Assembly (NCBI GenBank): GCA_964506795.1
Contig: CAZDMR010000001.1
Location: 87,975 to 151,974, forward strand
Length of the DNA: 64,000 nt
Reading direction: 5' to 3'
Source: an uncultured Acidobacteriota bacterium
Lineage (GTDB): Bacteria > Acidobacteriota > UBA6911
Shown here: one piece after another, positions 10,019 through 63,028 of the stretch
Layout: every line of letters begins with the position of its first letter
How positions within the stretch are numbered: position 1 is the stretch's first letter
Program-made: the position numbers and the translations under genes
Notes under the pieces: generated by a model
Databases searched by the model: none
Told to the model about the DNA's origin: nothing
Seen by the model: the letters and a program-made list of their open reading frames with translations, nothing else

Positions 10019-10201
10019 ATTTTGTCCTCCGGAATCTCCCGATCGCAAGCAACCAAAATGCCGCATCCGCCGGATGCCGCCGCAACCGGGATTGGCATCG
10101 TCCGATTTCAATAAATTGCTTACCGTGCATGTTGACGGGGTGCTATAGTACCACGCGTTCGCCGGATTTCAACCTGCGCCGGCCGTCATGGAGGATACTC
10201 T

Positions 10202-12586: not shown

Positions 12587-12607
12587 AGCGGGCCGGAGTC
12601 TTTCGTT

Positions 12608-13384: not shown

Positions 13385-13468
13385 GGGCGGAAACGCCGTT
13401 CCATGGCGCAGTCGATTCCCGCGCCCGCGCAAGGCAGCTTCGGCGGCCGGGATAGGAATTTTGAGAAA

Positions 13469-14884
13469 ATGAGTCCTGAACTGGTTCTGCACGAAGACCG
13501 CCTGTTCCCTTCGGATCCCGGCCAGCGCGCTATCGCCCGCCGCCTGTATAACGGGGTGCGGAATCTGCCGATCATCAGTCCCCACGGCCACACGGATCCC
13601 GAATGGTTTGCCGAGAATAAAGCATTTTCCGATCCCGCAACGCTGCTGATCACCCCGGATCATTATATCTACCGCATGCTTTACAGCCGCGGTGTTGCTC
13701 TCGAGTCGCTGGGAATACCCCGAACGGACGGGGGGGAGGTCGAGCGGGATCCCCGCAAAATATGGCGCCTTTTCGCACAACACTGGCATCTCTTCCGAGG
13801 CACGCCCACGCAGCTGTGGCTCCATCATGCTCTGCACGAAGTGTTCGGCGTCCGGGAGCGCCTGACGAGCGAATCCGCGGACCGCATATACGACGCCGTC
13901 TCCCATTGTCTTTCGAGCCCTGAATTCCTGCCGCGCGCGCTTTTCGAGCGTTTCCGCATTGAAGTGCTTGCCACCACCGAGTCCCCCCTGGATCCGCTCG
14001 CGCACCATCTCAAGCTGCGCCGGTCGGATTGGAAAGGCCGCATTGTTCCGACCTATCGGCCGGATCCCGTGGTGGATCCGGAATACGAGGATTTTTCCGC
14101 AAATGTCCGGCGGCTCGGTGCCATCACCGGAGAGGACTCCGAAACCTGGACCGGCTACCTGAAAGCGCTGGAGGACCGCCGCCGCTTTTTCAAATCCCTC
14201 GGCGCAACGGCCACGGACCACGGGCATGTTTCGGCCGCCACTTCCGACCTGTCGCGTTCCCAATGCGAATCCCTTTTTGAAAAAGCCGTCTCGGGGACAA
14301 TATCGCCGGCGGAGGCCGAACTATTCCGGGGCCAGATGCTTATGGAAATGGCGCGCATGAGCATCGAAGACGGTCTTGTCCTGCAGCTTCATCCCGGCTC
14401 TTTTCGCAACCACAACTCGGCGATTTTCCGCGGCTTCGGCAGGGACAGGGGGGCGGACATTCCGCTGCCGACGGACTTTGTGCGCAATTTGAAGCCTCTG
14501 CTCGACCGCTACGGAAACGATTCGCGGCTGTCCATCATCCTTTTCACTCTGGACGAGTCGGCCTATTCCAGAGAACTGGCGCCGCTGGCCGGCCACTACC
14601 CGGTTTTGACCCTGGGCCCGGCCTGGTGGTTTTACGACAGCCCCGAGGGAATGCGCTTCTACCGAGAGCGGACTATGGAAACGGCCGGATTTTACAATAC
14701 CGCGGGCTTTAATGACGATACGCGCGCATTCCCGTCCATACCGGCGCGCCACGATGTTGCGCGGCGAATGGATTGCGCTTTTCTTGCGCGCCTGGTTGCC
14801 GAACACCGGCTCGATGAAGATGAAGCGCGGGAAGTCGCGGTCGATCTGGCGTACCGTCTTGCCAAGCGGATATACAGGCTCTAG
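13469..14884 (+). CDS. uxaC: Glucuronate (uronate) isomerase
   Basis: ARRLYNGVRNLPIISPHGHTDPEWF matches the UxaC N-terminus ([21 protein letters not shown]). 471 aa from ATG 13469, the same length as E. coli UxaC. An alternative upstream ATG at 13403 would add 22 aa. Confidence 0.85.
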   Translation: MSPELVLHEDRLFPSDPGQRAIARRLYNGVRNLPIISPHGHTDPEWFAENKAFSDPATLLITPDHYIYRMLYSRGVALESLGIPRTDGGEVERDPRKIWRLFAQHWHLFRGTPTQLWLHHALHEVFGVRERLTSESADRIYDAVSHCLSSPEFLPRALFERFRIEVLATTESPLDPLAHHLKLRRSDWKGRIVPTYRPDPVVDPEYEDFSANVRRLGAITGEDSETWTGYLKALEDRRRFFKSLGATATDHGHVSAATSDLSRSQCESLFEKAVSGTISPAEAELFRGQMLMEMARMSIEDGLVLQLHPGSFRNHNSAIFRGFGRDRGADIPLPTDFVRNLKPLLDRYGNDSRLSIILFTLDESAYSRELAPLAGHYPVLTLGPAWWFYDSPEGMRFYRERTMETAGFYNTAGFNDDTRAFPSIPARHDVARRMDCAFLARLVAEHRLDEDEAREVAVDLAYRLAKRIYRL

Positions 14885-21443: not shown

Positions 21444-23009
21444 ATGAATAAAGGACCTCATCCCCTGACGCTCTTGTTCGCGTCCGTTCTCGGATTAAGT
21501 TTCCTATCCGCCTGCAACCGGACAGATGAGCCCGTTCGCATCCAGGGAGGCCTGGTATCCGGCGCGAGAGGGGCCGATCCCTCCATTAAAATATACAAGG
21601 GCATTCCATTTGCTCAGCCCCCCGTGGGCGATTTGCGCTGGAAGGAACCCCAGCCGCCGAAACCGTGGCAAGGAGTGCGGAAAGCGGACAGCCTGCCTCC
21701 CGCCTGCGTTCAGAATGTTGTAAAGTCGAGACTCCCCTGGACGGAGGAGTATATGCACCAGGGGGAAACCAGCGAGGATTGCCTCTATCTCAACATATGG
21801 ACAGGGGCGGCCGCCGTAAAAGAAAAGCGCCCCGTGATGGTTTACGTTTACGGAGGAGGATTCACGGAAGGATCCAATGCAGTGGCCGTTTACGACGGCG
21901 AGGAGCTTGCCGGAATGGGGGCTGTCATCGTCGTTATGAACTATCGCCTCGGCCCCCTGGGATTTTTGGCTCATCCCGAACTCTCCGCGGAATCCGCGCA
22001 TCATACCTCCGGCAACTACGGCTTGATGGACCAGGCGGCGGCGCTCAGGTGGATCCGTGACAATATCGAGGCCTTTGGAGGAGATCCGCAGCGGGTCACG
22101 GTTTTCGGCCAATCGGCTGGAGCCATGTCGGTTTCGGCACTGCTCGAGTCTCCGCAGGCCCAAGGATTGTTTGCGCGGGCGATTATTCAAAGCGGCCCGG
22201 GATTGCTTCCCCCGAGCATTTTGAGCGGAAGCGTTCCGCTGGACAAAGCGGAAGAGAACGGGGCGCGGTTTGCCGCAGCCATGGGCGCGGCCTCTCTGGC
22301 GGATTTGCGTGCAATACCGCCTGAAAAACTGATCGGCGGCGCGGGATCCGTCCGGTTCGGGACCGTTATCGACGGCTGGTTTCTCCCCGAAAAAAACTCC
22401 GATAAGGGCCCGCTCCCTTTGATCAACGGGTTTACCGCGGATGACCTTGGGGTTGACGGCGGATTCGGTTCTCCGCCGCCGGCAACCGTTGAAGCCTATG
22501 AAGGGGAAGCACGCAAGCTTTACGGGGACGAAGCGGGAGCTTTCCTTTCCCTGTATCCGGCGAATTCCGACGCAGGCGTGCCTGCGCTTCGCAAAGCGGC
22601 GGCTCAAGACCGCGCGCGGATATCGCTGTATCTGTGGGCTTCGAAACAAGCCGCCGCCGGCAGTTCCGTCTACACCTATTATTTCGACCGTGCGATCCCC
22701 TGGCCGGATCATCCCGAGTTCGGGGCGTTCCATTCCGGAGAACTGCCGTATGTTTTTAATAATCTCAAGATCTTTGACCGGCCGTGGGAAACAACCGATT
22801 ACGCGATAGCGAACCAGATTTCCCGCTATTGGATCAATTTCGCCGAGCGGGGCGATCCCAACGGGCCGGGACTGCAACCATGGCCGGATTTCAATCCATC
22901 GCAGCCCGTCACCATGCGGCTCGGCGCGCGGATGGGAGCGATGCCTATCGCGGATCCGGCAGAGACGGCATTCTGGAAAAGGATTCTTGCCGCGCCTGAC
23001 GGCCAATGA
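21444..23009 (+). CDS. Carboxylesterase type B (secreted lipoprotein)
   Basis: A lipoprotein signal (LSFLSAC), the nucleophile motif GQSAGA and the oxyanion-hole motif YGGGF are present. 521 aa. Confidence 0.88.
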   Translation: MNKGPHPLTLLFASVLGLSFLSACNRTDEPVRIQGGLVSGARGADPSIKIYKGIPFAQPPVGDLRWKEPQPPKPWQGVRKADSLPPACVQNVVKSRLPWTEEYMHQGETSEDCLYLNIWTGAAAVKEKRPVMVYVYGGGFTEGSNAVAVYDGEELAGMGAVIVVMNYRLGPLGFLAHPELSAESAHHTSGNYGLMDQAAALRWIRDNIEAFGGDPQRVTVFGQSAGAMSVSALLESPQAQGLFARAIIQSGPGLLPPSILSGSVPLDKAEENGARFAAAMGAASLADLRAIPPEKLIGGAGSVRFGTVIDGWFLPEKNSDKGPLPLINGFTADDLGVDGGFGSPPPATVEAYEGEARKLYGDEAGAFLSLYPANSDAGVPALRKAAAQDRARISLYLWASKQAAAGSSVYTYYFDRAIPWPDHPEFGAFHSGELPYVFNNLKIFDRPWETTDYAIANQISRYWINFAERGDPNGPGLQPWPDFNPSQPVTMRLGARMGAMPIADPAETAFWKRILAAPDGQ

Positions 23010-24316: not shown

Positions 24317-25387
24317 CTAACCAAAAGAGCCCGCATAGCCCGCGATGACGGCCGAGGCGATCAAAAGCAGGAGGCCGGCCGCCAGAAGAGACCGGGTTTT
24401 TTTGCCGGTCCCCTTCCATTCTCCGAGAGTGACTCCCAAAAGCTGGCTGAAGAGGATCTGGCTCGCCATCAAAACGGCCCAGCCTATATAGGAAATGTCG
24501 CCCATCTTGGGCTCCCCCGTTTTGAAGCAAATAAACTGCGAGCACCAGATCGCGCCCGCAATGGCCGCGAAAATCAAATTCTTCGCGATGGGAGCGCTTC
24601 GGTCGACATAGTCTTTTGCCGTGCGGTTTTTCACATTCAGCAGCAGGCACCAACACAAATTCACGAGGAAGCCGCCGAAAAGCACGACAACCAGAACAGG
24701 CATTCCGGCCCAGGTTACGGAAGTCGCCGGCGGCGTTACCCGGGCGGCTTCCTGTATCGACGGGCCGCCTTGAAGGCCGAAACTCATCGCGGCGCTCATC
24801 AAACCGGAAAAGACCGCGACCAGAATTCCCTTTCGAAAATTGAATTCCGCGACCGCCTTGCTCTTCTGCTCGGCGGAAAGTTCATCCTCCTTGGACATGC
24901 CCGCCATCCCGACAAAGACAATGCCCGCCAGCGACACAACAGCCGATCCGAGGGACACCATGCCCGCGGGCGTTGTAAACATCGCCGCGACCGCCGGACC
25001 GCCTTTAAGCAAGGGCGGGACTAATGTCCCCGCCGCCGAAGTCAATCCCGCGCCCAATGCAAGTCCAAGGCCGAATCCCAAGTACCGGATCATCAGCCCC
25101 CAGGTCAATCCGCCAAAGCCCCATGCGGCGCCGCACAGCAGGCAGTATACAAGTTCATCGGCCGGCGCGTTTCGCAGCACCGACAGGACGTTCGGCGAGG
25201 CAGCAAAGGCCAGGAGCCACGGGACAACGACCAGCCCAAAAACCGCATAAACCATCCAGTAGCTTTCCCACGCCCATCCTTTCACCTTCTTAAATGGAAG
25301 ATAAAAGACGGCGCCCGCCAGGCCGCCCAGCGTAAAAATCAAAATCCCCACCGGAGCATTCAGCGAGTCAACCGGAACCGCATCCAT
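24317..25387 (-). CDS. rhaT: L-rhamnose:proton symporter RhaT
   Basis: GILIFTLGGLAGAVFYLPFKKVKGWAWESYWMV aligns with the E. coli RhaT N-terminus ([33 protein letters not shown]). The start at ATG 25387 follows GGAGGA. An alternative ATG at 25411 overlaps the rhaA stop as ATGA. Confidence 0.85.
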   Translation of the reverse strand: MDAVPVDSLNAPVGILIFTLGGLAGAVFYLPFKKVKGWAWESYWMVYAVFGLVVVPWLLAFAASPNVLSVLRNAPADELVYCLLCGAAWGFGGLTWGLMIRYLGFGLGLALGAGLTSAAGTLVPPLLKGGPAVAAMFTTPAGMVSLGSAVVSLAGIVFVGMAGMSKEDELSAEQKSKAVAEFNFRKGILVAVFSGLMSAAMSFGLQGGPSIQEAARVTPPATSVTWAGMPVLVVVLFGGFLVNLCWCLLLNVKNRTAKDYVDRSAPIAKNLIFAAIAGAIWCSQFICFKTGEPKMGDISYIGWAVLMASQILFSQLLGVTLGEWKGTGKKTRSLLAAGLLLLIASAVIAGYAGSFG

Positions 25388-25410
25388 AGCGTCCTCCACG
25401 GACTGAGCCA

Positions 25411-26679
25411 TCAATTGCGTTTGGACAAAACCGCATCCTCGTATTTCTTCACTTCGACGATCCAATTCATGCCGACGGGTACGAGTTTTTGCATGCAGTA
25501 GTAATCCCACACGGCGGCCCACGGCAGAGCCTTCATTTCCTCCAACAAAACCAGCCGTCGGGTGTAATCTCCGCTGCGCTCCGTTTTTTTCAGTTCATCG
25601 AACGGCTCCAGCAGCGCCACCAGCAGCGCTTTGATCATATTCCGCGTTCCGATCACCCAGGCCGCGACCCGATTGATGCTTGCGTCAAAATAGTCCAGCC
25701 CGATGTGAATTCTGTCCGTTTTGCCGCCGCGGATCACCTCCTTGGCAATAGCCTGAAGCTCGTCGTCCAGAATAACGACATGGTCGCTGTCCCAGCGGAC
25801 CGGGCGGCTGACGTGCAGCAGCAACTGCGGGCAGAACATTAAAACGGACGAAATTTTCTCAGAGATCATTTCCGTGGGATGGAAATGCCCGGCGTCCAGG
25901 CACAGGAGTTTCTGACGCGAGGAGGCGTACCCCAGGTAAAATTCATGCGAGCCGACCGTGTAGCTTTCCGCGCCGATTCCGAACAGCTTGGACTCCAAAG
26001 CATCCAGATGGATCGTCGGATCTATTTTTTCCTCAAATATCCTATCCAAAGAAACCGCCAGCCTTTCGCGCGGGCCGCTCCGGTCCGCAGGGATGTCTTT
26101 GTATCCGTCCGGTATCCAAAAGTTCGTTACTGTCGGCGTTCCCAGCTGCCGCCCCATTTCGGCGCCGATTTTACGGCACCGGACGCCGTGTTCAATCCAG
26201 AACTCCCGGATGCCTTTATCCGAATGGCTGAGCGTAAAGCCGTCCGCCGCCTTATCGTGCGAAAAATACGTCGGATTGAAATCCAGCCCCAATTTATTGC
26301 GCTTCGCCCAATCCATCCAGCTTTGAAAATGCCGGGGTTCCACCTCGTCGCGGTCGATGAATTTCCCCCCGTTGTCCAGATAGCAAGCGTGCAGATTCAC
26401 GCGGTGCCGTCCCGGAATCAAGCTGAGCGCTTTTTCCATATCGCTGCGCAGCTCGGCGATGGTGCGCGCCTTGCCCGGATAATTTCCGGTCGCCTGAATG
26501 CCGCCGCCGGAGAGCTCCGCGCCGGGCGTCTCAAAACCACCTACGTCATCGCCCTGCCAACAATGAAGGGATATCGGAATCGCCTCCAGCCGCTTTAGGG
26601 CGGCGTCGGCGTGGACCCCGTGCTCCGCATAGGCTTCTTTGGCGAATTCGTACGCCTGGGCAATATTGGCTTCATTCAT
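25411..26679 (-). CDS. rhaA: L-rhamnose isomerase
   Basis: The N-terminus ...[18 protein letters not shown] matches the E. coli RhaA block [17 protein letters not shown]. 422 aa. Confidence 0.92.
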
Positions 26680-26690
26680 GGTTTTCTCCT

Positions 26691-28199
26691 CTAAATAGAT
26701 TTATCCGCCGGCTCCAGATAACTGAGAAACCGCCTGTATCGCGCGTCCCAACGGTCCACCGCAAACGGCTCGAATCTTTCAACCGGGAAAGAACGCTCAA
26801 TAAGCTCCCGGGCCTCGGCCAGCGATCCCACGGCTCCGGCGGCAAGCATCTGCATGGCTATATTTCCAAGAGCCGTCGCCTCGGCGGGCCCCGCAACAAC
26901 CGTTCGCCCGGTTGCATCCGCCGTGAACTGATTGAGCAGCCGGTTCCTTGAACCGCCCCCCATAATCCGAATCTCTTCAAACCGAATTCCCGTCAATTCC
27001 TCCAGAGAGTCAAGCACCGTTCGATACTTGAAGGCAAGGCTCTCCAATATCGCTCTTGTGTATTCCCCCGGCCCCGAGGGAACCGGCTGCTCCGTGCGGC
27101 GGCAATATTCCGCGATGGCGGAAGGCATGTCGTCCGGATTCAGGAAAGACGGGTGGTCCGGGTCGAACAGCGAAAGGAACGCGCGCCGATCGTCCGCGGC
27201 GGCCTCCATCAATTCCTCGTAGGGGAAGTCCCGCCCTGATGCGGCCCAGCTCCGCCGGCACGACTGCAGAAGCCACAGCCCGCCGATGTTCTTCAACAGG
27301 CGTATGGTCCCGCAGACGCCGCCTTCATTCGTGAAATTCAAATCGCGCGCCCTTGCCGTAATCACCGGCTCGGCCAGCTCCGCGCCCAGCAAAGACCAGG
27401 TGCCGGAGCTTAAGAAAGCGCTTTTGCCGGAGGCCCCTACCGCGGCCACCGCAGAGCCGGTGTCGTGGCAGGCCGGCGCCACCACCGGCGTCCCCTCCAA
27501 AGCAGTCGAGACGTCGCCCCGGATCCCGCCGACAACCGTTCCGGGTTGAACGATGGGCTGCAGCAGCCGCGAAGGGAGATCAAGTTCGCCCAGCAAGCCG
27601 GCGGCCCATCCGCGGCTTCGGCCATCGACCAACTGGGTGGTGGTCGCATTGGTATACTCCGATACCAGGTTGCCGCAGAGCCAATAGTTCAATAAATCCG
27701 GGATGGTCGCCAAAGCCTGGGCCGCGAGGATCGTTTTCGGAGTCAAGCGGGAAGCGGCGAATAACTGGTACAGCGTGTTGAAAGGCAGGAACTGGATGCC
27801 GGTGACTTGGTAGATTCTTTCGCGCGGAACGATTGAAAATACCGCATCCATGATTCCGTCCGTGCGCGAGTCGCGGTAATGATAGGGATTTTCGAGCAAT
27901 CGGCCCTCTTCGCCCAGCAGCGCGTAATCGACGCCCCAGGTATCGACGCCGACGCTCTCGAGTTTAGGAAGAGATCCTTCTCCCAGTGCTTTTTTAACCT
28001 CATGCCACAACCGGAGTATGTCCCAATGCAGCTCCCCTCTGCAGCGGACGGGTTCGTTGGAAAAACGATAAATCTCGCTTACTTCGAGCGCACCGTTTTG
28101 AAGCCGCCCGAGAAGCGCGCGGCCGCTTTCCGCGCCGAGATCCAGTGCCAAAAAATTCACCCGCTTCCTGCCTCTCCCCGGCGCATAAATCCGGCACAA
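26691..28199 (-). CDS. rhaB: Rhamnulokinase (FGGY kinase)
   Basis: [17 protein letters not shown]..., the FGGY fold, and its position between rhaA and the aldolase support this call. The true start may be GTG 28160 (VNFLALD). Confidence 0.85.
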
Positions 28200-28221: not shown

Positions 28222-29418
28222 TTATCCGCGCTTTATCGCCGCCGCCATGGCGTCGGCGGCGGCTTTTGCCACGGCTTCGACATCCGCGTCGCTGAGCGTC
28301 CTGATCGAGCTGCGACTCGGATTGCGCGCGGCCGGAGGAGCCAGCGCAATCTCGCCCGGACGCTCCTCCTGATCCGGCGGCTCGCTCCCCCCTTTTTCAA
28401 ACCGGGCATCAGGCTGGCCAAGACGCTTTTTGATTTTGAGGAGATCCTCCCGCTTCTCCGGCGGTATCTTCACGTACGGGACTCCGAGCTGCCGGCTTAT
28501 CAACAGCGTCCAGCAATAGGTTTCGAGGTTCTCCGCATACCATTCGGCATGGGTGGGAGTATCGGCCCAACAGACAATTCCGTGATTCCCGAGCAGAATG
28601 GCGTTATGGTTTTTCACGAAAGGCAGAACGGTTTCCGCAAATTTTTTGGTGCCGGGAGTTTCATAGGGCGTGACGGCAACGCTGCCGACGAACACGTCAA
28701 ACTCCGGAATGACCGGCGTGGGGGGCACGCAGCCTGTAACCGCGTATGCCGTGGCATGCGGAGGATGGCAATGCACCACGGCCTTTGCCTGGGGCACCGC
28801 CTTAAAAATTTCGAGATGAAGATAAATCTCGCTGGTTCGTCGCAAGGGCCCCGCGATTTGGTTTCCATCAAGGTCAACCAGACAGAGATCTTCCGGTCTA
28901 AGATCCGCCTTGCTTAACAGCGTGGGCGTGCAAATCACCGCATTGCCGCCGATGCGGCAGGATATATTTCCTCCGTTGCCGTCCACGTAACTGCGCTCCC
29001 AAAGCTTGCGGCCGACTGCGCAAATTTCCTCTTTTACGGATCTCGCGTTGGATGAATAAAACAGGCCGGCCGTTTCCTCAGGAAAATCGTTGAGAGCGTG
29101 CGAATCAGCGCCCGGCTTTAAGCCGTCGGCAGGCAAAGCGATTTCCAAGGCATGAAGCACGCGCTCAAGAGCACCGTGAACCTGCGGGATCACATGCGAG
29201 CGGACGACATCGCCGCCGAGCGATTTTACGGCCGCCGCGCCGGCCTCCACGGCCGCACTCACCGCGCATGGGTCCCCGGCAATGAACGCCGTACATTGAT
29301 CGCCGCCGATTTGTTTCCATCCCTTGAATTCGACGCTTGCGGCCTTCAACATGGCGTCCGCCGCCTGAACCAGCATCACGAAACCCTTCGTTTCAATCAT
29401 TCCCAAAGCTTGCTTCAT
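28222..29418 (-). CDS. Fusion of an N-terminal BMC-H (microcompartment shell) domain to a class II aldolase (putative rhamnulose-/fuculose-1-phosphate aldolase) with a C-terminal encapsulation-peptide-like helix
   Basis: Residues 1-90, MKQALGMIETKGFVMLVQAADAMLKAASVEFKGWKQIGGDQCTAFIAGDPCAVSAAVEAGAAAVKSLGGDVVRSHVIPQVH, align nearly residue-for-residue with PduA/CcmK BMC-H. Residues ~120-330 match the class II aldolase fold (GGNISCRIG..., HCHPPHATAYAV, NHGIVCWADT). The tail has a Pro-rich linker followed by the amphipathic helix DVEAVAKAAADAMAAAIKRG. Confidence 0.85.
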   Translation of the reverse strand: MKQALGMIETKGFVMLVQAADAMLKAASVEFKGWKQIGGDQCTAFIAGDPCAVSAAVEAGAAAVKSLGGDVVRSHVIPQVHGALERVLHALEIALPADGLKPGADSHALNDFPEETAGLFYSSNARSVKEEICAVGRKLWERSYVDGNGGNISCRIGGNAVICTPTLLSKADLRPEDLCLVDLDGNQIAGPLRRTSEIYLHLEIFKAVPQAKAVVHCHPPHATAYAVTGCVPPTPVIPEFDVFVGSVAVTPYETPGTKKFAETVLPFVKNHNAILLGNHGIVCWADTPTHAEWYAENLETYCWTLLISRQLGVPYVKIPPEKREDLLKIKKRLGQPDARFEKGGSEPPDQEERPGEIALAPPAARNPSRSSIRTLSDADVEAVAKAAADAMAAAIKRG

Positions 29419-29522
29419 TATGAATCACCTCGCCGCCCGGATTAATCCGTCCCGGCAACCGAAATATTATGCTATTTTAAATCCAATGAGAGCCATTTTA
29501 TCCTCGGCGAAAGGATTGTTCC

Positions 29523-30836
29523 ATGAAACGCTTCCTGGTTCTTTTAGCTGTGGTTTTTTTGTCCGCTTCCCAGGCTGCTTCGCAACAAGAGGGGCAATGC
29601 ATGGTTTGCCACAAGCTTGTGTCTCCCGGTCTGTACAATCAATGGCACGAATCGCAGCACGCTGTTCACGGCGTGAGCTGTGTGGACTGCCACGGCGCCC
29701 AGCAAGGCGAAGAGGATGCTTTTGAGCATCACGGAGCCTTTATCGCCACGCTTGTAACTCCCCGCGATTGCGGACGCTGCCATACCAAGGAAGCCCGCGA
29801 AGTCCAGAATTCCTATCACGCCTCCGCCGGAGAGATTCTGCATTCGCAGGACGCGTATCTCGCCCACATAGCCGGCGGGCAGCCGGCAGCCGTCGCCGGC
29901 TGCGAAAACTGCCACGGCGCCCGCATTGTCATCGATCCCCATTCGCCCAACAGGCTTTCGAAAAAATCGTGGCCCAACTCCGGCATCGGGCGCATAAATC
30001 CCGACGGATCTAAAGGATCCTGCAGCGCCTGCCATACCCGCCATAATTTTACGAAGTCCCAGGCCCGCCAGCCGGAAAGCTGCTCCAAATGCCATCTCGG
30101 CCCCGATCATCCCCAAAAGGAGATCTACGAGGAGTCCAAACACGGCAATACCTATTACACAAATGTCAAAAAAATGAACTTGGATGCCGATCCGTGGGTG
30201 GTCGGGAAGGATTATTATGCCGCTCCAACCTGCGCGACCTGCCATATGTCCGCGACCTCCGTTCTGAAATCATCGCACGACGTCGGAGACAGAATCAGCT
30301 GGACCCTGCGGCCCGCGGTTTCCGTCCACAAGGATAATTGGCTCGCCAAGCGCGAGAATATGTTCACCGTCTGCCAATCATGCCATGGAAGCTCCTTTGC
30401 CAAGGGACATTATTACCAGTACGATGCCCTGGTTCGGCTCTATAACGGCAAGTTCGCGGAACCGGCGGCGGAGATCATGAAGCTTATCAGGGCTCAGAAG
30501 CTTCTGGAGAATCCGGCGGAATTCGGCAATAAAATAGAGTGGACCTATTATGAATTATGGCATCACGAAGGACGGCGGGCGCGGCACGGCGCGGCCATGA
30601 TGGGTCCGGACTACACCTGGTGGCATGGCATTTATGAAGTCGCCCAGCATTTTTATTTCAAATTCCTTCCGGAGGCGCGCGCATTCAACGATCCGAAAGT
30701 AAACGCGGCCATTGAAAAGCTTTTGAAAGAAGATCCCATGCATCAATGGCTGTCGCGCGATACCGAAACTCTTAAAAAAGCAATTCGCTCCGGCGACTTG
30801 CAGAAACAATACGACAAACTGTTCCAACAGGACTGA
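29523..30836 (+). CDS. Octahaem c-type cytochrome, secreted
   Basis: A signal peptide and 8 CxxCH motifs in 437 aa (CMVCH, CVDCH, CGRCH, CENCH, CSACH, CSKCH, CATCH, CQSCH). Confidence 0.85.
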   Translation: MKRFLVLLAVVFLSASQAASQQEGQCMVCHKLVSPGLYNQWHESQHAVHGVSCVDCHGAQQGEEDAFEHHGAFIATLVTPRDCGRCHTKEAREVQNSYHASAGEILHSQDAYLAHIAGGQPAAVAGCENCHGARIVIDPHSPNRLSKKSWPNSGIGRINPDGSKGSCSACHTRHNFTKSQARQPESCSKCHLGPDHPQKEIYEESKHGNTYYTNVKKMNLDADPWVVGKDYYAAPTCATCHMSATSVLKSSHDVGDRISWTLRPAVSVHKDNWLAKRENMFTVCQSCHGSSFAKGHYYQYDALVRLYNGKFAEPAAEIMKLIRAQKLLENPAEFGNKIEWTYYELWHHEGRRARHGAAMMGPDYTWWHGIYEVAQHFYFKFLPEARAFNDPKVNAAIEKLLKEDPMHQWLSRDTETLKKAIRSGDLQKQYDKLFQQD

Positions 30837-30843
30837 CAACCCC

Positions 30844-32424
30844 GTGTGGAAAACCTATTGGAAATTCATCCGCGCCCTGGCGGTCAACCGTTTGGGAAAA
30901 ATCGGCGTCCTTTTGGCTGCGTTGTCTTTTGTCATTTTCCTTCTACTCGAAGCCGCCCGTATCGCCGGCATCCTAAGGAGCGCCCGCATAGGATTGATGA
31001 CTTACATGGCGTTGCCGGCGCTCTTTATCATTGGATTGCTGCTTATTCCTTTAGGATGGGACCTGCTCCGGCGGCGGACCGGCGGGACGGTTTTACAGCT
31101 TCTCAACCGGAAGTTTGACAGCTCCGAACTGGAGGGCGGCTTTTTCGGTTCCAAGCTGGTTCTCAAGGCGGGCTTCCTCACGCTGGTCGGCCTCTTGTTC
31201 GTGATATTTGCGGGCGCCCGGATGCTTTCATTTATGGACCAGCCGCGTTTCTGCGGAACCGCGTGCCACAGCGTCATGAACCCTGAATGGGTGACTTTCC
31301 AGCAATCGCCCCACGCCAGTATTCGCTGTGTGGATTGCCATGTGGGAGAGGGCGTCGATGCGCTGGTAAAGAGCAAATTAAACGGGCTTTGGGAAATCCT
31401 ATCCGTGACATTGGACCTTCTGGAACGTCCGATTCCGACGCCTATTCACCAGCTGCGCCCGGCCCGCGAAACTTGCGAGAAATGCCACTGGCCGGATAAG
31501 TTTTATGGGACCCGGCTGAAGACCTACACTCGCTATCGCACGGACGAAGCGTCGACGCCAAGCTATACAACGTTAATGCTGAAGATCGATACGGGGAAGA
31601 AAGGCGAAAAAGCCGGGATTCACTGGCACATCGGCCCCACAAATCAGATCCGCTATTCTTCGGTGGACGATGAACGCGAAAAAATAATCCGCGTTGAAGT
31701 CCTTGAGCGCAGCGCCGTCCGCAAGCGTTTCTATAATTCCGAATTGGCCGGCGCCGACGGCGGGCTCGACAACGACATGCGCGTCATGGACTGCGTGGAT
31801 TGCCACAATCGCGCGACCCATATTTATGAGGATCCCGAGCAGGCGCTGGATGAGCGGATCTCCGCGGAACGGGTCGGCCGGAATCTGCCCTTTATCAAGA
31901 GAGAAGCGCTCAGGGTCCTCACCAATGATTATCCCGATAAGGAAGCGGCAATGGCGGCCGTTGAAAGGCAGATCAAAAGCTTCTACCGCCGCTATTATCC
32001 GGAGCTGGCGGCATCGGAAGCGGCAAATATCGAGACATCCATCCGGACGCTGCAATCGATATACGGGCGCAACATTCACCCGGAAATGAATATTGAATGG
32101 GGAAGCTACTCCAATCACATCAACCATGATAAAAACGGAGGCTGTTTCCGCTGCCATAATGAAAACATGGTGTCCGACGACGGGGAACATATCTCCTATG
32201 AATGCACGTCCTGCCACTCCTTCCTGGCCTACGGTGAATCCGATCCCCTGAAGTACCTCATGCCGGTCCGGACTCGCGACCGCGAATCCGAAATGCACCG
32301 GTATTTGCGCGAAGAATTTCTAGACGGCTACGCCAAATACCGCGCGCGGCCGAGAATCCGAATCCACCCGAATTGTCTGTTGTTTCTCCGTCAAAGGCCG
32401 TGTTCGATAAGACGGCTTACTTAA
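30844..32424 (+). CDS. Membrane-anchored hexahaem cytochrome c: a NapC/NirT-like tetrahaem module plus a C-terminal dihaem extension
   Basis: 2-3 N-terminal transmembrane helices and 6 CxxCH motifs. The first four have NapC/NirT-like spacing (CGTACHS, CVDCHV, CEKCHW, CVDCHN). Two more follow (CFRCHN, CTSCHS). Confidence 0.8.
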   Translation: MWKTYWKFIRALAVNRLGKIGVLLAALSFVIFLLLEAARIAGILRSARIGLMTYMALPALFIIGLLLIPLGWDLLRRRTGGTVLQLLNRKFDSSELEGGFFGSKLVLKAGFLTLVGLLFVIFAGARMLSFMDQPRFCGTACHSVMNPEWVTFQQSPHASIRCVDCHVGEGVDALVKSKLNGLWEILSVTLDLLERPIPTPIHQLRPARETCEKCHWPDKFYGTRLKTYTRYRTDEASTPSYTTLMLKIDTGKKGEKAGIHWHIGPTNQIRYSSVDDEREKIIRVEVLERSAVRKRFYNSELAGADGGLDNDMRVMDCVDCHNRATHIYEDPEQALDERISAERVGRNLPFIKREALRVLTNDYPDKEAAMAAVERQIKSFYRRYYPELAASEAANIETSIRTLQSIYGRNIHPEMNIEWGSYSNHINHDKNGGCFRCHNENMVSDDGEHISYECTSCHSFLAYGESDPLKYLMPVRTRDRESEMHRYLREEFLDGYAKYRARPRIRIHPNCLLFLRQRPCSIRRLT

Positions 32425-33763
32425 CGCTTAAAACCAGAGAAGCGCTGTTAACCGGACGCGGTTCGCAGGAGTAGGAGGGAAGTTCCATCAGTTTGGCCAC
32501 GGAACTGGGCACCAGGCTGTAATAAAGCGTCGCCGATATGTTTACTTGCTGCGCGGAAAGCTCCTTGGGAACATTCCATGTATAGGTTTCCACTTTGGTT
32601 TCCATCGGCCCTATGCGATAGTCGATTTCGTTGTTTTTCGCCGTGAACCATTGGCAAATGGTCATCCGGCCCTGCGGATCGAAATACGGCCGCCGGAAAA
32701 TGCGGGATCCGTCAGGCACGTCCCCGTCGCGGAGAACTCCTTTATATCCGGGCGCGTCCATGATTTCTCCCATGGCCTGGTAGGCGAGGGCGTTGGAATC
32801 AGCGATGGTGAACTCTTCGCCGGGGAACCCTTTCTTATCAACGGGAATGCGATAGACGCGGCCCTCATGGTCCTTTCCTTGGACCTCCAGCCACAGCATC
32901 CTTTCTTCAGAGGATCCCGAGGGGATAAAGTGCCCGGCTTTGCCGTTATAAAGCACGGCCCGGATTACGACTTTGGACCCAGCCTTCACTTCGCTTTTGT
33001 CTGCGTATAGCGCTAGGTCTACGCTTCCTTTCAACTTTTGGCTGAAATGGGGGCCGTGAAATACATGATGGGCGATATCGTCCCTTTGTTTTCCGCCGAC
33101 GGACGATTTGCCCGGAGCATGGTGCATATGGCAATCCTGGCACCTGATCCCCTGCCCGGCGTACGGACTCGCCTTCCATTCCCGATAGGTTTCCTTAACC
33201 CAGGCGCCGTAAGGACTTTTCTCGTCATGGCAGGTGGCGCACAACTCGGGGCTCGCCGTAAAAGCCGAATATTCTGTTTCGTGAAACCGCGATTCTGCGT
33301 CCTTGCGGACCCCGTATTTTGTTTTGCCGGGATTTACCGTATAGCTGAAGTTGAAAGGCTCTTTTCCCGAGGACCCCGTCATGCTGTGGCACACGTCGCA
33401 GCTGACCCCCTCGTTGACACGGGTGCCTGCGGCGGGCGGCTTCGGCGGGATGTCGCCGGTCAAAAAAGCGAGCGGTCCGTGGCAAGCAATGCAATCCGAT
33501 TTAACTCCGGCGACTTTTTCGAGCTTGAACGCATGGGGCAAAGCCAGCTTGAAATACTCTGCGTCATCCCACGGATGAGTAAAGGATTGGGACATCAGGC
33601 TCTGTTGCCACTCCTGATAAATTTCCTTGTGACAGGCGCCGCATTGCATCGGTTTGCTGAAATCGTCGTAGGCAAAGTCCGCCTTTTCCGCAGCCTGCCA
33701 GGAAGGCAGGCCTATAAAAATCAAGGCGGCCGCCAAACCGAATGACAGCCATGTCCTTTTCAT
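32417..33763 (-). CDS. Pentahaem c-type cytochrome, secreted
   Basis: A signal peptide (MKRTWLSFGLAAALIFIGLPSWQA) and 5 CxxCH motifs. The start at ATG 33763 follows GGAGGGGG. The 3-prime end overlaps the convergent cytochrome gene by 8 nt. Confidence 0.8.
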   Translation of the reverse strand: MKRTWLSFGLAAALIFIGLPSWQAAEKADFAYDDFSKPMQCGACHKEIYQEWQQSLMSQSFTHPWDDAEYFKLALPHAFKLEKVAGVKSDCIACHGPLAFLTGDIPPKPPAAGTRVNEGVSCDVCHSMTGSSGKEPFNFSYTVNPGKTKYGVRKDAESRFHETEYSAFTASPELCATCHDEKSPYGAWVKETYREWKASPYAGQGIRCQDCHMHHAPGKSSVGGKQRDDIAHHVFHGPHFSQKLKGSVDLALYADKSEVKAGSKVVIRAVLYNGKAGHFIPSGSSEERMLWLEVQGKDHEGRVYRIPVDKKGFPGEEFTIADSNALAYQAMGEIMDAPGYKGVLRDGDVPDGSRIFRRPYFDPQGRMTICQWFTAKNNEIDYRIGPMETKVETYTWNVPKELSAQQVNISATLYYSLVPSSVAKLMELPSYSCEPRPVNSASLVLSVK

Positions 33764-33830
33764 AATCCCCCTCCAAGGCTTGACCCGCATTATTCATGAA
33801 CCTTCTGCCGCGGTTCGCGGAATAAGCGGT

Positions 33831-35369: not shown

Positions 35370-36338
35370 TCAAAAGGGGCAGTATGTTTCACATAGGAAT
35401 TGGGAAATATCAGAAACGTTTGCGCTGCTGCCTGATGCCGCTTGCCTCAGGTTCACCAGGCATATGGGGCACATGGTGACGATGCGGTCCCCCACGGCGG
35501 TCAGCTGTTCCACGCGCTGCTTGGCGATTCTGTGTGCCTCGCTCGGGAACAGAGTTTCAACAGGGCCGCCGCAGCAGAATGTATTGCGGCCCGAATACTC
35601 CAAATCAGGAAGCCCGGCGCCGGCTTTGCGCAGCAAATCCCGAGGCTGCTCCACCATATCCTCATAACGCGCATAGACGCAGGAATCATGCACGACCACG
35701 TCGGCGTCCAGCTTGCGCAACGTGCTTAATTTGCGTTCCGCAAGAACTTCAATATAGCTTTGCACTTGCAGATTAAAATCCTCGACCGTCGACGGGAAAA
35801 CGCTTCTGAGCATATTTGTGGTGTGCGGATCCACCGTTATCACGCGCTTCACATTATGCTTTTTGAACAGTTGATGGACCTTGAGCGCATGTTCCTTGAA
35901 AGCGGCCATGATTCCTTCGTCGTAAGCCAGCGTCCCCAGATAGAGTTCCTCGTCGTACAAATAACCGAAATCAACGTCGGCCGCTCTCAGAAGGAGGGCG
36001 ATCTTGCGGAGCAATTCGTTGAATTCCGCCTCATCCTTTGAAGACACCATCAAAGGCGTCAACATTGAAAAATCGGCGATCTTGTTCGCAGCCCGCCCTA
36101 TTCCGGAGAGGCGGGTGATCGAGGAATTCTCAAACCGAGCCGTTAATTTCCCAAGGGCGAGAAGGGAAGGCATCAACTGATACATGTGGCCCGTATATAT
36201 AATCGTTCTGCCGCCGACGGGGATATCCAGTCCTTTAGCCCAAGCCGTCAGCGCCCGCGAGGGAAGCGGTAAAATACTCCCCCGCTTTCTCAGATTATCC
36301 GCCAGTATTCCCAGAATCGTTCCAGTCGGTAAAGGCAT
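35370..36338 (-). CDS. HdrB/GlpC-like CCG-domain protein (first CCG domain degenerate, second intact)
   Basis: The C-terminal CCG domain is intact (HDSCVYARYEDMVEQPRDLL...GRNTFCCGGP). The N-terminal repeat keeps the fold signature but has no Cys (TIIYTGHMYQLMP). Confidence 0.7.
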   Translation of the reverse strand: MPLPTGTILGILADNLRKRGSILPLPSRALTAWAKGLDIPVGGRTIIYTGHMYQLMPSLLALGKLTARFENSSITRLSGIGRAANKIADFSMLTPLMVSSKDEAEFNELLRKIALLLRAADVDFGYLYDEELYLGTLAYDEGIMAAFKEHALKVHQLFKKHNVKRVITVDPHTTNMLRSVFPSTVEDFNLQVQSYIEVLAERKLSTLRKLDADVVVHDSCVYARYEDMVEQPRDLLRKAGAGLPDLEYSGRNTFCCGGPVETLFPSEAHRIAKQRVEQLTAVGDRIVTMCPICLVNLRQAASGSSANVSDISQFLCETYCPF

Positions 36339-36340
36339 AG

Positions 36341-36649
36341 CTAAGTCTCTAAACTATATAACTTCCTATTGATATAACAGCGAAGGCATCTCACATTATC
36401 AGCGATGTGCACTTTCGCAGGGCAGTTTTCTTCGCACATTTTGCAGAGCAGACATGAAAAGACAGTCTCCGTGTTCTCTAAAATCTTGTCTTCCAAGCCA
36501 AGCAGTGCGTAACGAAACAAGCGCCTGGGAAGGAGATTGAATCCGACCGGGCAAACCGCGGTGCAAACTCCGCAGTGCATGCAGGCGGAAGCGTTGAAAT
36601 CTTCGGAACACTTCATTTCATCCAGAAACGATGAGTTTACTTTTGCCAT
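36341..36649 (-). CDS. HdrC-like 2x[4Fe-4S] ferredoxin
   Basis: CMHCGVCTAVCP and CLLCKMCEENCP motifs in 102 aa. Lies 2 nt upstream of the CCG protein. Confidence 0.8.
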   Translation of the reverse strand: MAKVNSSFLDEMKCSEDFNASACMHCGVCTAVCPVGFNLLPRRLFRYALLGLEDKILENTETVFSCLLCKMCEENCPAKVHIADNVRCLRCYINRKLYSLET

Positions 36650-36658
36650 GGTGGCTTT

Positions 36659-36907
36659 CTATTCCTTTTCCTTTGCCTGGTAAAAGCAGTAACCGTTTTC
36701 GTCCGGGTCCCCTTTTTCCTCCACAAGCCCGTATCTCCACATCCCCATTATCCACATCGTCACTTCGCGGGAAGGGGCTCCGAGAGTTTGCGCAATTTCC
36801 GGGATGGTCATTGCTTTTTTGTTGATGATAGAGAGGATGGCGTCTTTCATGACCATTTCATCTCTCATGATTTCGGAAATCTCGCGGTTTGTCTGATTAG
36901 TGCTCAT
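36659..36907 (-). CDS. Small (82 aa) winged-helix-like protein of unknown function inside the Hdr-like operon (DsrD-like fold is possible)
   Basis: The ORF is tightly packed between hdrA-like and hdrC-like genes, with 9-10 nt gaps on each side. It has a helix-turn-helix-like segment (IPEIAQTLGAPSREVTMWIMGMWRYGLVEE). Confidence 0.5.
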   Translation of the reverse strand: MSTNQTNREISEIMRDEMVMKDAILSIINKKAMTIPEIAQTLGAPSREVTMWIMGMWRYGLVEEKGDPDENGYCFYQAKEKE

Positions 36908-36916
36908 CGTATCTTC

Positions 36917-38629
36917 CTACGCTAATGCATCGATTGTCGCCGTGATCTGCTTATCCGTGTAACCCTTCAGATCAATGGCATCCTGGGGGCAGACCGGGAT
37001 ACAGGCCCCTCCGCCTTTGCATAGACTGCTGTCTATCCGGGCAACTTCCTTGTCTCCGGCGGCAATCTTCGTTATGGCATCATACTGGCAGGCGGCGACG
37101 CATTCGCCGCACCAGGTGCATTTTTCAGCATCCACTTCGGCGATAAAAGGATCGAGATCGACATAACCTTTCATCAATAACCCGGCGCTCTTGGAAGCGG
37201 CGGATAAGGCCGACGCAACACTTTCGGGCAGATTCTTTGGCCCCTGCGCGGTTCCGGCGATAAAAATTCCATCCACGACCGTTTCCACCGGCCTGAGCTT
37301 GGGATGGATTTCATTAAAGAAGCCGTCCTTGCCCACCGGCAATTTCAGAACATCGATGAGTTCTTCATTCTTTCTCGGAACCATGCCGACAACGAGCACC
37401 ACCATATCGGCGGGAATCTCCACATCCTCACCCGATAGAAGCCGATCCGATACGGTGACGCAAAGCTTTCCGTTCGCGCGTTTGACCACAGGCGGTTTAT
37501 CCGGCTCGTAACAGAGGAACGCGGATCCTTTGGCGCACGCTTCGTCGTAAAGCAGTTCATATTGGCCGTAGGTCCGCATATCCCGATAAAGGTGGAACTG
37601 ATGTATGTCCGGATCCGCCTTGTGAGCGCATAGCGCCGTGTGCACGGTGGTCGTACAGCAGTATCTGGAGCAGTAAAGGTTTTTCCCTCCTTCATTGGGA
37701 TTCTGCCTGCTTCCAACACAGTAGATATAGACGATGTCCTTAACGCGGCGGCCGTTATACATGATGGCGCCGTCGGATTTATCGATTAATTCGCGAAATT
37801 CCGGGAGCAACAGAACTCCCTCTTCGCCGTAGCCGTATTCCCCTTTGGCCGGCTGGTAAACCTCAAATCCGGTGGTAACGACGATGGCTCCCACATTCAG
37901 CTGCAACGAGTCGTTGTCCGGCAGTTTTATTTTTACGGCGAAATTGCCGATGCTGCCTTTCTTTTCCACGACCTCCGCGTTGGTAAAAACGGTTACGTTT
38001 TCGTTCCCGCTTATTTGTTCCTTCAGTTTTCCGATGATTTCGAATCCCAGCTTGTCGTGTGGGAACATTCTTCCCCACTTTGCCGTCCAACCGCCGACTT
38101 GCCCTGTTTTTTCAACAACAAACACATGCAATCCGAGATCGGCCAACGCCAAAGCGGAGCGCAATCCGGCGACTCCTCCCCCGACGACAAGCACCTTGGG
38201 AGTGGTCTCCATCCTAAAACTGCTGAGAGGTTCGCTGTTGCGGCATCGGGCGATACCCGCCCTGACAAGATGGATGCCTTTTTCGGTAGCGTGCTCGCGT
38301 TCCGCCCGATGAACCCAGGAGCATTGTTCCCTCAAATTAACCTGCACATACATATAGGGATTGAGCCCCGCCCGTTCAGCCGCGCCCCTGAACGTATACA
38401 GATGGAGCTTAGGAGAGCAGGAAGCAACCACCATGCCGTCCAGCTTTTCGGAATTGATATCGTCGATGATTTCTTGCTGCGCGGCGTCGGAACAGGTGAA
38501 CATGCTCGTTTTGGCGAGAACGACTCCCTCTTCGTTCTTGACCGCATCCCGCACTTTCTCCACGTCTACATAGTCCGAAATGTTTCCGCCGCAATGGCAG
38601 ATGTAAACGCCTATCCGTCTTTGATTCAT
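36917..38629 (-). CDS. hdrA: HdrA-like flavoprotein (N-terminal CxCG 4Cys cluster, FAD domain, C-terminal 2x[4Fe-4S])
   Basis: IGVYICHCGGNIS...CSPKLH matches the HdrA N-terminus. The FAD motif VLVVGGGVAGLRSA is present. C-terminal ferredoxin motifs are CTWCGECVAACQ and CKGGGACIPVCP. Confidence 0.75.
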   Translation of the reverse strand: MNQRRIGVYICHCGGNISDYVDVEKVRDAVKNEEGVVLAKTSMFTCSDAAQQEIIDDINSEKLDGMVVASCSPKLHLYTFRGAAERAGLNPYMYVQVNLREQCSWVHRAEREHATEKGIHLVRAGIARCRNSEPLSSFRMETTPKVLVVGGGVAGLRSALALADLGLHVFVVEKTGQVGGWTAKWGRMFPHDKLGFEIIGKLKEQISGNENVTVFTNAEVVEKKGSIGNFAVKIKLPDNDSLQLNVGAIVVTTGFEVYQPAKGEYGYGEEGVLLLPEFRELIDKSDGAIMYNGRRVKDIVYIYCVGSRQNPNEGGKNLYCSRYCCTTTVHTALCAHKADPDIHQFHLYRDMRTYGQYELLYDEACAKGSAFLCYEPDKPPVVKRANGKLCVTVSDRLLSGEDVEIPADMVVLVVGMVPRKNEELIDVLKLPVGKDGFFNEIHPKLRPVETVVDGIFIAGTAQGPKNLPESVASALSAASKSAGLLMKGYVDLDPFIAEVDAEKCTWCGECVAACQYDAITKIAAGDKEVARIDSSLCKGGGACIPVCPQDAIDLKGYTDKQITATIDALA

Positions 38630-41334: not shown

Positions 41335-41764
41335 TAGATTTTTCCTTCGCGTCGGCTTCGAGAAGCCTTAACGAGTTCTTAAAATTTTCCATATGGGATA
41401 CAAAAGACTCCGCGCAAACAGAACAAATGGCCGCCATTTTAACCCGCTGCGCGCTGTGTCCATTTTCTTCAAGAAGCTTTTGCGCCCTTTGCGTCAAGGC
41501 GGCCGTCCGTTCGGTGCAGTCCTGGGTATACACGCAATCGCTTCCATCCGCCGCAATGAACACGCCGTCGAATCCCGCATTTACAGCGCGGAGGACCCAA
41601 CTCGGCTTTATGCTGCTTGAACAACGCAACGGTATGACAAACACCGAAGGCGAATAATGCAAGTGAGAGCTTCCGGCTAAATCAATCCCGGGATCCGAAA
41701 TTGTCTCCGTCGAGAACACAAGGATCTTGGGATCTTTCCCCTCGCTCTTTTCCCCTTCCGCCAT
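41324..41764 (-). CDS. MvhD/FlxD-like domain protein lacking the canonical first Cys pair
   Basis: KILVFSTETISDPGIDLAGSSHLHYSPSVFVIPLRCSSS...GFDGVFIAADGSDCVY aligns with MvhD (KIVVFACNWCSYAGADTAG...VMCSGR...GADGVLVGGCHFGDCHY). The CNWC pair is replaced by STET, and one of the two distal Cys is Ala. Confidence 0.6.
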   Translation of the reverse strand: MAEGEKSEGKDPKILVFSTETISDPGIDLAGSSHLHYSPSVFVIPLRCSSSIKPSWVLRAVNAGFDGVFIAADGSDCVYTQDCTERTAALTQRAQKLLEENGHSAQRVKMAAICSVCAESFVSHMENFKNSLRLLEADAKEKSNEA

Positions 41765-62872: not shown

Positions 62873-63028
62873 AAAAAGGCCTCCTTGAACGGTTTTCGAT
62901 TCCAAATCGGACAAGCTGCTAGATGCTGCGCATTATACTTTAACCGCCAGGATGTTTGCTCTGGAAATCGGCTTTCCGCTTGCCTATATTGAAGGGTTTG
63001 TTTATTTATGCCGGCGCAATAAAAGTAC

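Follow-up and report, generated by a model that had tools for sequence, protein, structure and literature searches.

The enzymes of bacterial microcompartments (BMCs) are normally recruited non-covalently by encapsulation peptides (EPs), and covalent fusions of shell to cargo are engineers' constructs. Here, we describe a natural gene in which the two are joined: a BMC-H shell domain, a linker, a class II aldolase, a second linker, and an EP-like helix follow one another in a single polypeptide. The gene lies in a rhamnose operon on a 64,000-nucleotide stretch of DNA (the window) from an uncultured Acidobacteriota bacterium (UBA6911; GenBank assembly GCA_964506795.1, contig CAZDMR010000001.1, positions 87,975 to 151,974).

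The closest described enzymes are the signature aldolases of PVM-type and ACI loci (Axen 2014, PMC4207490; Aussignargues 2015, PMC4594438; Sutter 2021, PMC8217296). Like these, the fusion protein belongs to PF00596 (within the matched region, 55 to 77% identical to acidobacterial members whose genes adjoin shell genes), ends in a C-terminal linker and an amphipathic encapsulation-peptide helix, and is predicted to split a deoxy-sugar 1-phosphate into dihydroxyacetone phosphate (DHAP) and lactaldehyde. Unlike them, it is encoded in a rhamnose operon with no gene for a shell protein, aldehyde dehydrogenase (AldDH), phosphotransacylase (PTAC), or acetate kinase nearby, and it carries a BMC-H domain instead of an N-terminal module (N-module) of ~55 aa, with shell part and cargo in one polypeptide.

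BMC-H proteins with C-terminal extensions are also known, and these extensions reach up to 200 residues (Sutter 2021, PMC8217296). The fusion resembles the PduK/EutK type of extended BMC-H in its N-terminal, non-permuted PF00936 domain and in the extra C-terminal sequence predicted on the concave face of the hexamer. In contrast to that type, its extension is ~310 residues long and amounts to a complete signature enzyme plus an EP, its motifs read KAAS and PQVH for KAAN and (P/A)RPH, and its gene lies outside any shell locus. Engineered fusions of PduA to cargo or coiled coils (Lee 2018, PMC6109187) likewise attach their cargo covalently through a flexible linker, with the cargo expected on the concave face; the present fusion, however, is natural, and its cargo is the native signature enzyme. 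The RPI-DERA fusion of SPU3 loci (PMC11585597) is also a gene fusion in a sugar-phosphate pathway with an aldehyde intermediate but unites two catalytic domains and includes no structural shell domain. Escherichia coli RhaD performs the same step with RhaA, RhaB, and RhaT as partners and belongs to the same class II aldolase superfamily, whereas the fusion enzyme is not its orthologue but FucA-like, with two microcompartment-related appendages. In some rhamnose operons, RhaEW is a bifunctional aldolase/lactaldehyde dehydrogenase, which again joins two catalytic domains.

The literature that we searched (full texts and two locus catalogues with their supplements) contains no description of a BMC-H::aldolase fusion, a statement bounded by that literature. 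The material searched does describe EPs at the C terminus of aldolases, extensions of BMC-H that reach 200 residues, and fusions between enzymes; the component parts are known, and their combination is not among the literature searched. A natural fusion provides a test case for the relative orientation of shell and cargo (concave face in or out), for cooperation between EP and shell, and for the fragmentation and decay of microcompartment loci, within the limits of a family that is rare, has been met only in uncultured Acidobacteriota, and may in part be vestigial.

One reading frame encodes a shell domain and an aldolase

A single unbroken open reading frame (ORF) of 398 aa on the reverse strand carries both the shell domain and the aldolase. 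Its parts are as follows, with the evidence for each in parentheses.

28222..29418, minus strand: complete fusion gene, comprising BMC-H, linker, class II aldolase, linker, and EP-like helix (ORF, Pfam, identical protein in three sources, AlphaFold2 model)

29426..29431, minus strand: Shine-Dalgarno (SD) sequence GAGGTG, 7 nt 5' of the ATG at 29416-29418 (direct sequence reading)

29149..29418, minus strand: BMC-H domain, residues 1-90, non-permuted, with K25 (KAAS) kept, pore loop GGD, and edge PQVH (PF00936, PDB sequence matches, pLDDT, motif comparison)

29065..29148, minus strand: linker 1, residues 91-118, of low conservation and disordered (pLDDT <50 at residues 98-110)

28399..29064, minus strand: class II (FucA-type) aldolase core, residues 119-340 (PF00596, Foldseek, catalytic-residue check)

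28294..28398, minus strand: linker 2, residues 341-375, disordered, with an abundance of Pro, Gly, Ser, and charged residues (pLDDT ~48-55; 89% small, polar, or Pro)

28225..28293, minus strand: C-terminal EP-like helix, residues 376-398, SDADVEAVAKAAADAMAAAIKRG (helix 377-397, pLDDT ~88-90)

An initial annotation, made from the sequence alone, had proposed that a BMC-H domain is fused to the aldolase in one polypeptide and had named a PF00936 profile search and a structure prediction as checks. Both agreed with the proposal. In the Pfam search, PF00936 (BMC) covered residues 4-79 with a score of 77.4 bits (E = 8.2e-22; cut-off, 24.5), the match spanning positions 1-74 of the 75 in the profile, and PF00596 (Aldolase_II) covered residues 130-303 of the same chain (E = 2.3e-45). 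The AlphaFold2 model (a monomer, from an alignment of 80 sequences; mean pLDDT of 81) showed a confident BMC fold (pLDDT ~90-96), a confident aldolase core, two disordered linkers, and a confident helix at the C terminus. In this model, the secondary-structure elements of the BMC domain follow the order E3-11, H13-25, E29-38, E41-48, H50-66, E71-79, and H81-90. When the N-terminal 96 aa were compared with PDB sequences, residues 1-88 aligned with EutM (8e-24), HO-5815 (5e-20), and PduA (6e-19). The fused domain is collinear with all three and thus has the fold of a non-permuted BMC domain.

The initial annotation had also recognized that a frameshift, or separate ORFs for the two domains, would undo the proposal. 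We consider it a negligible prospect that a frameshift, a chimeric assembly, or a mis-called start merged two separate genes here. The frame is single and continuous with a good SD sequence, the identical 398-aa protein is present in NCBI, JGI, and an independent Logan assembly, and ~16 homologous clusters on independent contigs have a common architecture. Since three sources hold the identical protein and the homologues are built alike, we exclude a frameshift or assembly artefact.

Production of a free aldolase from an internal start, as in PduB/B' and CcmM58/35, was also considered and rejected. No start codon occurs at residues 96-135 of the fusion, and the internal candidates up to residue 95 all lack a good SD sequence at proper spacing. 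Together with the one good SD-ATG pair, this means that the aldolase can be made solely as a fusion. A scan for promoters and terminators returned counts at chance level.

The aldolase resembles the signature enzyme of acidobacterial microcompartments

The catalytic core of the fusion is intact. The catalytic Glu (E197) and the metal-binding residues H216, H218, and H279 are all present and are invariant or nearly so among homologues, and Foldseek matched the core to structures of FucA-type aldolases (target TM of 0.87-0.91). The NCBIfam RhaD model (NF002963) scored 40.9 bits, far under its equivalog cut-off of 170, indicating that the enzyme is not a RhaD orthologue. Judging from the operon in which it is encoded, the fusion would be the operon's rhamnulose-1-phosphate aldolase, a non-orthologous FucA-type replacement of RhaD.

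The sequences flanking the core also point to cargo aldolases. Linker 1 opens with LEIAL, which resembles the LEQAAL motif in the linker of unfused relatives. At the C terminus, the tail shares homology with those of aldolases from shell-gene loci, consistent with its initial description as encapsulation-peptide-like. An EP consists of an amphipathic helix of ~17 aa preceded by a linker of low conservation. The tail of the fusion has this layout, with 35 disordered linker residues leading into helix 377-397, which is weakly amphipathic in the window copy.

We then compared the fusion with unfused aldolases in a scan of 80 loci (one genome per species, nearly all labelled Acidobacteriota). None of these 80 species loci encoded a fused aldolase. 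Genes for BMC-H lay directly upstream of the unfused aldolase in 44 of the 80 loci and genes for BMC-P in 39, and the nearest unfused aldolases were acidobacterial, with the identity of 55 to 77% over the matched region given above. One of the loci (L091) is a complete PVM-type locus in the order ack, PTAC, three BMC-H, BMC-P, AldDH, two BMC-P, aldolase, and DeoR, and several PVM-type loci have an adjoining rhaA.

The unfused locus aldolases are ~380 aa long and consist of the N-module of ~55 aa, a linker with the motif LEQAALAYGRP, the core, a second linker, and a C-terminal encapsulation peptide. Of the 80 loci, 57 have the N-module, on the aldolase only, with the sequence MKxIDLSGxKxITARDIEAAxKAGATEL...LTPSARDxLQKxGI (L014-L086, e.g., L058:9977-11110 and L015:9809-10891; also P0009, P0015, and P0085). 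Searches of Pfam and PDB sequences gave no match to this module, which might serve in shell binding or assembly as an element not yet described. The BMC-H domain of the fusion occupies exactly the position of this module. Neither an N-module nor nearby shell genes are present in the unfused relatives closest of all (L009-L013 and L061; 69-76% identical); rhamnose genes lie beside L011, L013, and L061, and the synteny of L061 and L092 is that of the window operon and of the P0023 operon described below.

A proposed hexameric anchor on a microcompartment encoded elsewhere

We tentatively favor a reading, to which we give a little short of an even chance, in which the shell domain forms hexamers by which the rhamnose aldolase is anchored to a PVM-type microcompartment encoded elsewhere in the genome, the fusion gene being a satellite cargo-shell locus. 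The aldolase would descend from the signature enzyme of the acidobacterial PVM-type fucose/rhamnose microcompartments, with a BMC-H shell domain having taken the place of the ~55-aa N-terminal module. The BMC-H domains would assemble as a hexamer, the concave face of which would present six flexible tethers of 28 residues, each bearing one aldolase protomer. FucA-type aldolases form tetramers. The hexameric platform, together with the retained EP, would anchor the aldolase on or in a compartment whose shell, AldDH, and phosphotransacylase are encoded elsewhere. There, the aldolase would split rhamnulose-1-phosphate to DHAP and L-lactaldehyde, so that toxic lactaldehyde would be released at the organelle. 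The analysis establishes in which order the domains lie, that the catalytic residues are intact, that the gene is part of the operon, that both ends are homologous to parts of microcompartments, and that the BMC domain and the tail are under purifying selection; we infer hexamerization, shell docking, the substrate, and a main microcompartment locus in this genome. The retention of the fold, of K25, and of the EP, the joint loss of these appendages elsewhere, and the recurrence of the fusion argue that the appendages are functional in the window lineage.

Fused relatives in other Acidobacteriota

The initial annotation had suggested a survey of homologous aldolases for the same fusion, and the architecture does recur. 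Both Pfam domains were found in 16 of the 120 best clusters (the window's included), and the BMC domain was full length in 11 of these 16. In an exhaustive search clustered at 50%, the first 150 entries included no representative with a full-length fusion; because fusions collapse under other representatives at this clustering level, the abundance of the family can be stated solely as rare. A homologue search with the BMC domain alone had no fusion proteins among its matches and hence provides no count of fusions. The free BMC-H proteins nearest to the fused domain are acidobacterial and 56-65% identical to it.

Fusion genes elsewhere also lie beside rhamnose genes. The contexts of P0006 and P0003 read aldolase, DeoR, rhaB, lutABC, rhaA, and rhaT, and that of P0008 is the same with rhaA not in view. 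In P0005, the aldolase is followed by rhaB and the contig end. P0023, a form with half a BMC domain, lies in the order aldolase, rhaB, rhaA, and rhaT, followed by uronate genes. Three forms occur on separate contigs of one JGI metagenome (3300075153): a full BMC domain with EP (P0005), a full BMC domain without EP (P0003), and half a BMC domain without EP (P0023). In the P0003 context from this metagenome, a gene for an aldehyde:ferredoxin oxidoreductase (AFOR) lies ~3 kb upstream of the fusion operon with lutABC, and a PFL-like glycyl-radical enzyme and its activase are encoded 7-10 kb upstream. In these anaerobes, the conversion of lactaldehyde to lactate, for which an enzyme is missing, could be carried out by AFOR.

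Several other candidates for truncated fusions were rejected. P0138, P0178, P0185, P0204, P0234, and P0252 are tandem BMC fragments, and P0290 and P0312 are fragments of N-module aldolases. In addition, P0259, P0261, P0265, P0266, and P0268 (286-387 aa) each contain three or four separate BMC matches and look like triple or quadruple tandem shell proteins; rare quadruple BMC fusions are mentioned in the supplement of Sutter 2021 (PMC8217296).

Absence of nearby shell genes and altered shell motifs

Several observations, given here and in the following section, weigh against a role as an anchor on a microcompartment. One is the lack of shell partners nearby. In the window, phmmer against the six-frame translation found no second BMC domain (next match, E = 0.11), seeds that detect BMC-P in 39 control loci detected none, and none of the 52 ORFs matched PF00171, PF06130, or PF00465 (no AldDH and no PTAC/PduL). 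These searches came up as empty as the initial annotation had claimed when it reported no BMC-P, other shell gene, aldehyde dehydrogenase, or PduL in the 64 kb. The setting of the aldolase is a rhamnose operon and not a locus of shell, AldDH, and PTAC genes. Nor was a shell gene, AldDH, or PTAC present within ~10 kb of any other fusion gene examined.

The motifs of the shell domain also depart from those of shell proteins. In basal hexamers, the facet-interface motifs are KAAN and (P/A)RPH (Sutter 2021, PMC8217296). We compared 88 free acidobacterial BMC-H proteins of related loci with 11 fusions at five positions.

Edge Lys (K25): 88 of 88 free BMC-H, 11 of 11 fusions; K in the window

Pore Gly 38: 88 of 88 free BMC-H, 8 of 11 fusions; G in the window

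Pore Gly 40: 84 of 88 free BMC-H, 4 of 11 fusions; D in the window

Edge Arg: 79 of 88 free BMC-H, 5 of 11 fusions; Q in the window

Pro after the edge Arg: 88 of 88 free BMC-H, 7 of 11 fusions; V in the window

The window domain thus has G38-G39-D40 instead of the conserved pore loop G-[SG]-G, and its edge reads PQVH instead of the (P/A)RPH of basal hexamers despite the presence of K25. Among the fusions, the pore loop is variable (QIGGDQC, QINGGQF, KIDDTTC, and others). The initial description of a bona fide BMC-H domain therefore holds for the fold and the edge Lys but not for the GGD pore, the PQVH edge, or the rate of evolution, which is faster than that of free shell proteins.

Orientation and the tail raise further difficulties. 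In BMC-H proteins, the termini are located on the concave side; solved shells turn this side to the cytoplasm (PMC6109187), with some debate for native shells. Because the termini are on this cytoplasm-facing side, the aldolase of a fusion tiled into a shell would be held outside it, an arrangement that fits poorly with a lumen-targeting EP. The EP of the window copy is itself weakly amphipathic, with a muH of 0.27 (reached by 13% of shuffles) compared to 0.37-0.51 in homologues.

The lack of shell genes near any fusion gene examined would be accounted for if the fusion worked independently of a shell. Six-fold BMC-H hexamers and four-fold aldolase tetramers might build a cytoplasmic sheet, lattice, or condensate with no closed compartment, in which self-associating C-terminal helices would add contacts and which would raise the local level of the enzyme and might also draw in a partner that consumes lactaldehyde; we regard this as somewhat unlikely. 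The mismatch in valency between BMC-H hexamers and FucA-type tetramers, a matter of general structural knowledge, speaks for such a scaffold. So does the pattern of motifs, with a variable pore, frequent loss of the edge Arg-Pro, and conservation of K25 and the fold-defining positions: this is what would be expected if hexamerization matters and pore function and canonical tiling do not. An evolution that is faster yet constrained is consistent with the same idea. Tiling by PduA is dominated by Lys-26 and Arg-79, yet its R79A mutant still makes sheets (Pang 2014, PMC4139245).

A stand-alone scaffold is harder to reconcile with the conservation of the EP and with the loss of the EP together with BMC integrity. 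To our knowledge, the only role of an EP is in microcompartment shells or cargo cores. Rarity and repeated decay of the family would also be unexpected for an advantageous scaffold. The corresponding functional proposal, that a shell domain has been naturally repurposed so that aldolase tetramers cross-link BMC-H hexamers into a lattice or condensate that lacks a shell and handles lactaldehyde production, is in our judgment unlikely. If true, a shell-less lattice would be a new mode of bacterial metabolic organization built from microcompartment components and a natural precedent for engineered BMC-H scaffolds.

Constraint, recurrence, and decay of the fused domain

The remaining evidence concerns how the appendages evolve. 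Relative to the window protein, the aldolase cores of the homologues are 82-88% identical, and the BMC domains of P0002-P0006 are 59-71% identical with no indels (41% in P0008). Linker 1 is ~20-31% identical among most fusion homologues (61% in P0002), and linker 2 is 37-66% identical in P0002, P0004, and P0005 and 19-43% in other homologues. The EP is 65-78% identical in P0002, P0004, and P0005 and 39% in P0006. The 59-71% identity of the BMC domain, compared to ~20-31% for linker 1, shows that the fused domain is under purifying selection.

However, this selection is weaker than in shell proteins. For aldolase cores at 80-85% identity, the corresponding identity is 78% between free BMC-H proteins and 51% between fused domains; for cores at 85-90%, it is 90% and 58%, respectively. 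By these sequence comparisons, constraint on the fused BMC domain is looser than on genuine shell tiles, and this faster divergence is a further point against the anchor.

Decay is evident in sister lineages and weighs in the same direction. Eight half-BMC proteins (P0019, P0022-24, P0039, P0046, P0060, and P0094) are in-frame internal deletions that join beta1 (QQAIGMI) to VxxGD, with loss of helix alpha1 and its edge Lys, of beta2, and of the pore loop. In P0012 and P0013, the BMC domain is reduced to a remnant of ~10 residues (MNQAPGMIEAREAF). The EP is absent from all 8 half-BMC forms and from the ~10-residue remnants and is kept in 5 of 7 full-length close relatives, being missing in full-length P0003 and P0008. 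Mis-called starts as a source of the half-BMC forms were rejected: L093:10001-10999 has in-frame stops upstream and its own SD sequence, and no N-terminal half lies nearby.

The initial annotation had offered two readings, a self-targeting cargo-shell fusion and a non-compartment scaffold. Because sister lineages show in-frame BMC deletions, a third has to be weighed, namely, that the fusion is the decaying remnant of a locus. According to this explanation, BMC-H and the aldolase became one gene when part of a PVM-type locus was deleted or rearranged, and the product then moved with DeoR into a rhamnose operon; the microcompartment has been lost, leaving the aldolase as an ordinary cytosolic enzyme with the BMC domain and tail as slowly decaying passengers. 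The adjacency of aldolase and DeoR in some fusion operons, which mirrors the 3' end of PVM-type loci, is consistent with such an origin. The loss of near-invariant shell motifs, the ~1.5-2x faster divergence of the fused domain relative to free BMC-H, and P0008, in which the BMC domain has fallen to 41% identity and the EP is gone, are consistent with such a fate, as is the series from full domain to in-frame deletion of alpha1 through the pore loop to ~10-residue remnant, with EP loss alongside.

Nevertheless, we consider a vestigial fusion rather unlikely for the window lineage. The BMC domains of the window protein and of P0002-P0006 are free of indels and stop codons, and they stand at 59-71% identity while the linkers of the same proteins are mostly at 20-31%. 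Moreover, the predicted fold is confident, K25 is present in 11 of 11 fusions, and the EP is conserved in the 5 of 7 close relatives noted above.

Recurrence of the fusion also suggests selection. In two further groups of proteins (P0066/95 and P0087/110), the BMC domain is 65-73% identical to free BMC-H and 46-51% identical to the window domain, and the aldolase cores are nearest to other unfused clades. Given that these BMC domains are closer to free BMC-H and that the cores fall in different unfused clades, the same two domains have, by sequence comparison, probably been fused three separate times and in the same order. These features are compatible with the tentatively favored tethering of the aldolase to a microcompartment.

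The rhamnose operon and its surroundings

On the coding strand, the operon reads fusion aldolase, rhaB, rhaA, and rhaT, with gaps of 11-22 nt. The fusion, initially annotated as the last gene of the operon, is therefore its first. The other three genes, which are 73-82% identical to counterparts in Acidobacteriota metagenome-assembled genomes, are as follows.

26691..28199, minus strand: rhaB, rhamnulokinase, second gene, 22 nt past the fusion stop codon (FGGY_N, FGGY_C; TIGR02627, E = 9e-142)

25411..26679, minus strand: rhaA, L-rhamnose isomerase, third gene (PF06134, E = 7e-212; NF002203 above cut-off)

24317..25522, minus strand: rhaT, rhamnose/H+ symporter, fourth gene (PF06379, E = 2e-51; NF010024, E = 6e-107)

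As mechanically called, the rhaT ORF overlaps rhaA by 112 nt. Pfam matches it from residue 58 onward, and homologues measure ~355 aa, so the real start is probably ~38 codons further in (MAQSVEDAM...), with no true overlap. DeoR and lutABC, which are present in other fusion operons (L002, L006, and P0003 contexts compared), are absent from the window operon, and no lactaldehyde dehydrogenase, lactaldehyde reductase, or lactate-utilization genes were found in the 64 kb.

Three multihaem cytochrome c genes adjoin the operon (29523-33790; 437, 526, and 457 aa; matches to Multi-haem_cyto, NapC/NirT-like, and MtrC/MtrF-like families), and the first two diverge from it across its 104-bp upstream region. 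Further along lies an Hdr/Mvh-like cluster (35370-41764) that encodes a CCG protein, a Fer4 protein, HdrA-like and GltD-like flavoproteins, and FlpD/MvhD, and a pyruvate:ferredoxin oxidoreductase is encoded at 2544-6164. The Hdr/Mvh-like cluster and this oxidoreductase point to an anaerobic or facultative lifestyle of the host. The window also encodes an RND efflux system.

A second sugar cluster, at 8513-14884, comprises genes for an FGGY kinase, a GH3 beta-glucosidase, a short-chain dehydrogenase, and the glucuronate isomerase UxaC, with two MFS transporter genes behind them. A carboxylesterase is encoded at 21444-23009 and a tannase/feruloyl esterase at 61295-62914. The uronate, beta-glucoside, and esterase genes mentioned in the initial annotation are thus present as UxaC, GH3, the carboxylesterase, and the tannase/feruloyl esterase, and the sugar cluster together with the two esterases supports a plant-polymer-degrading niche.

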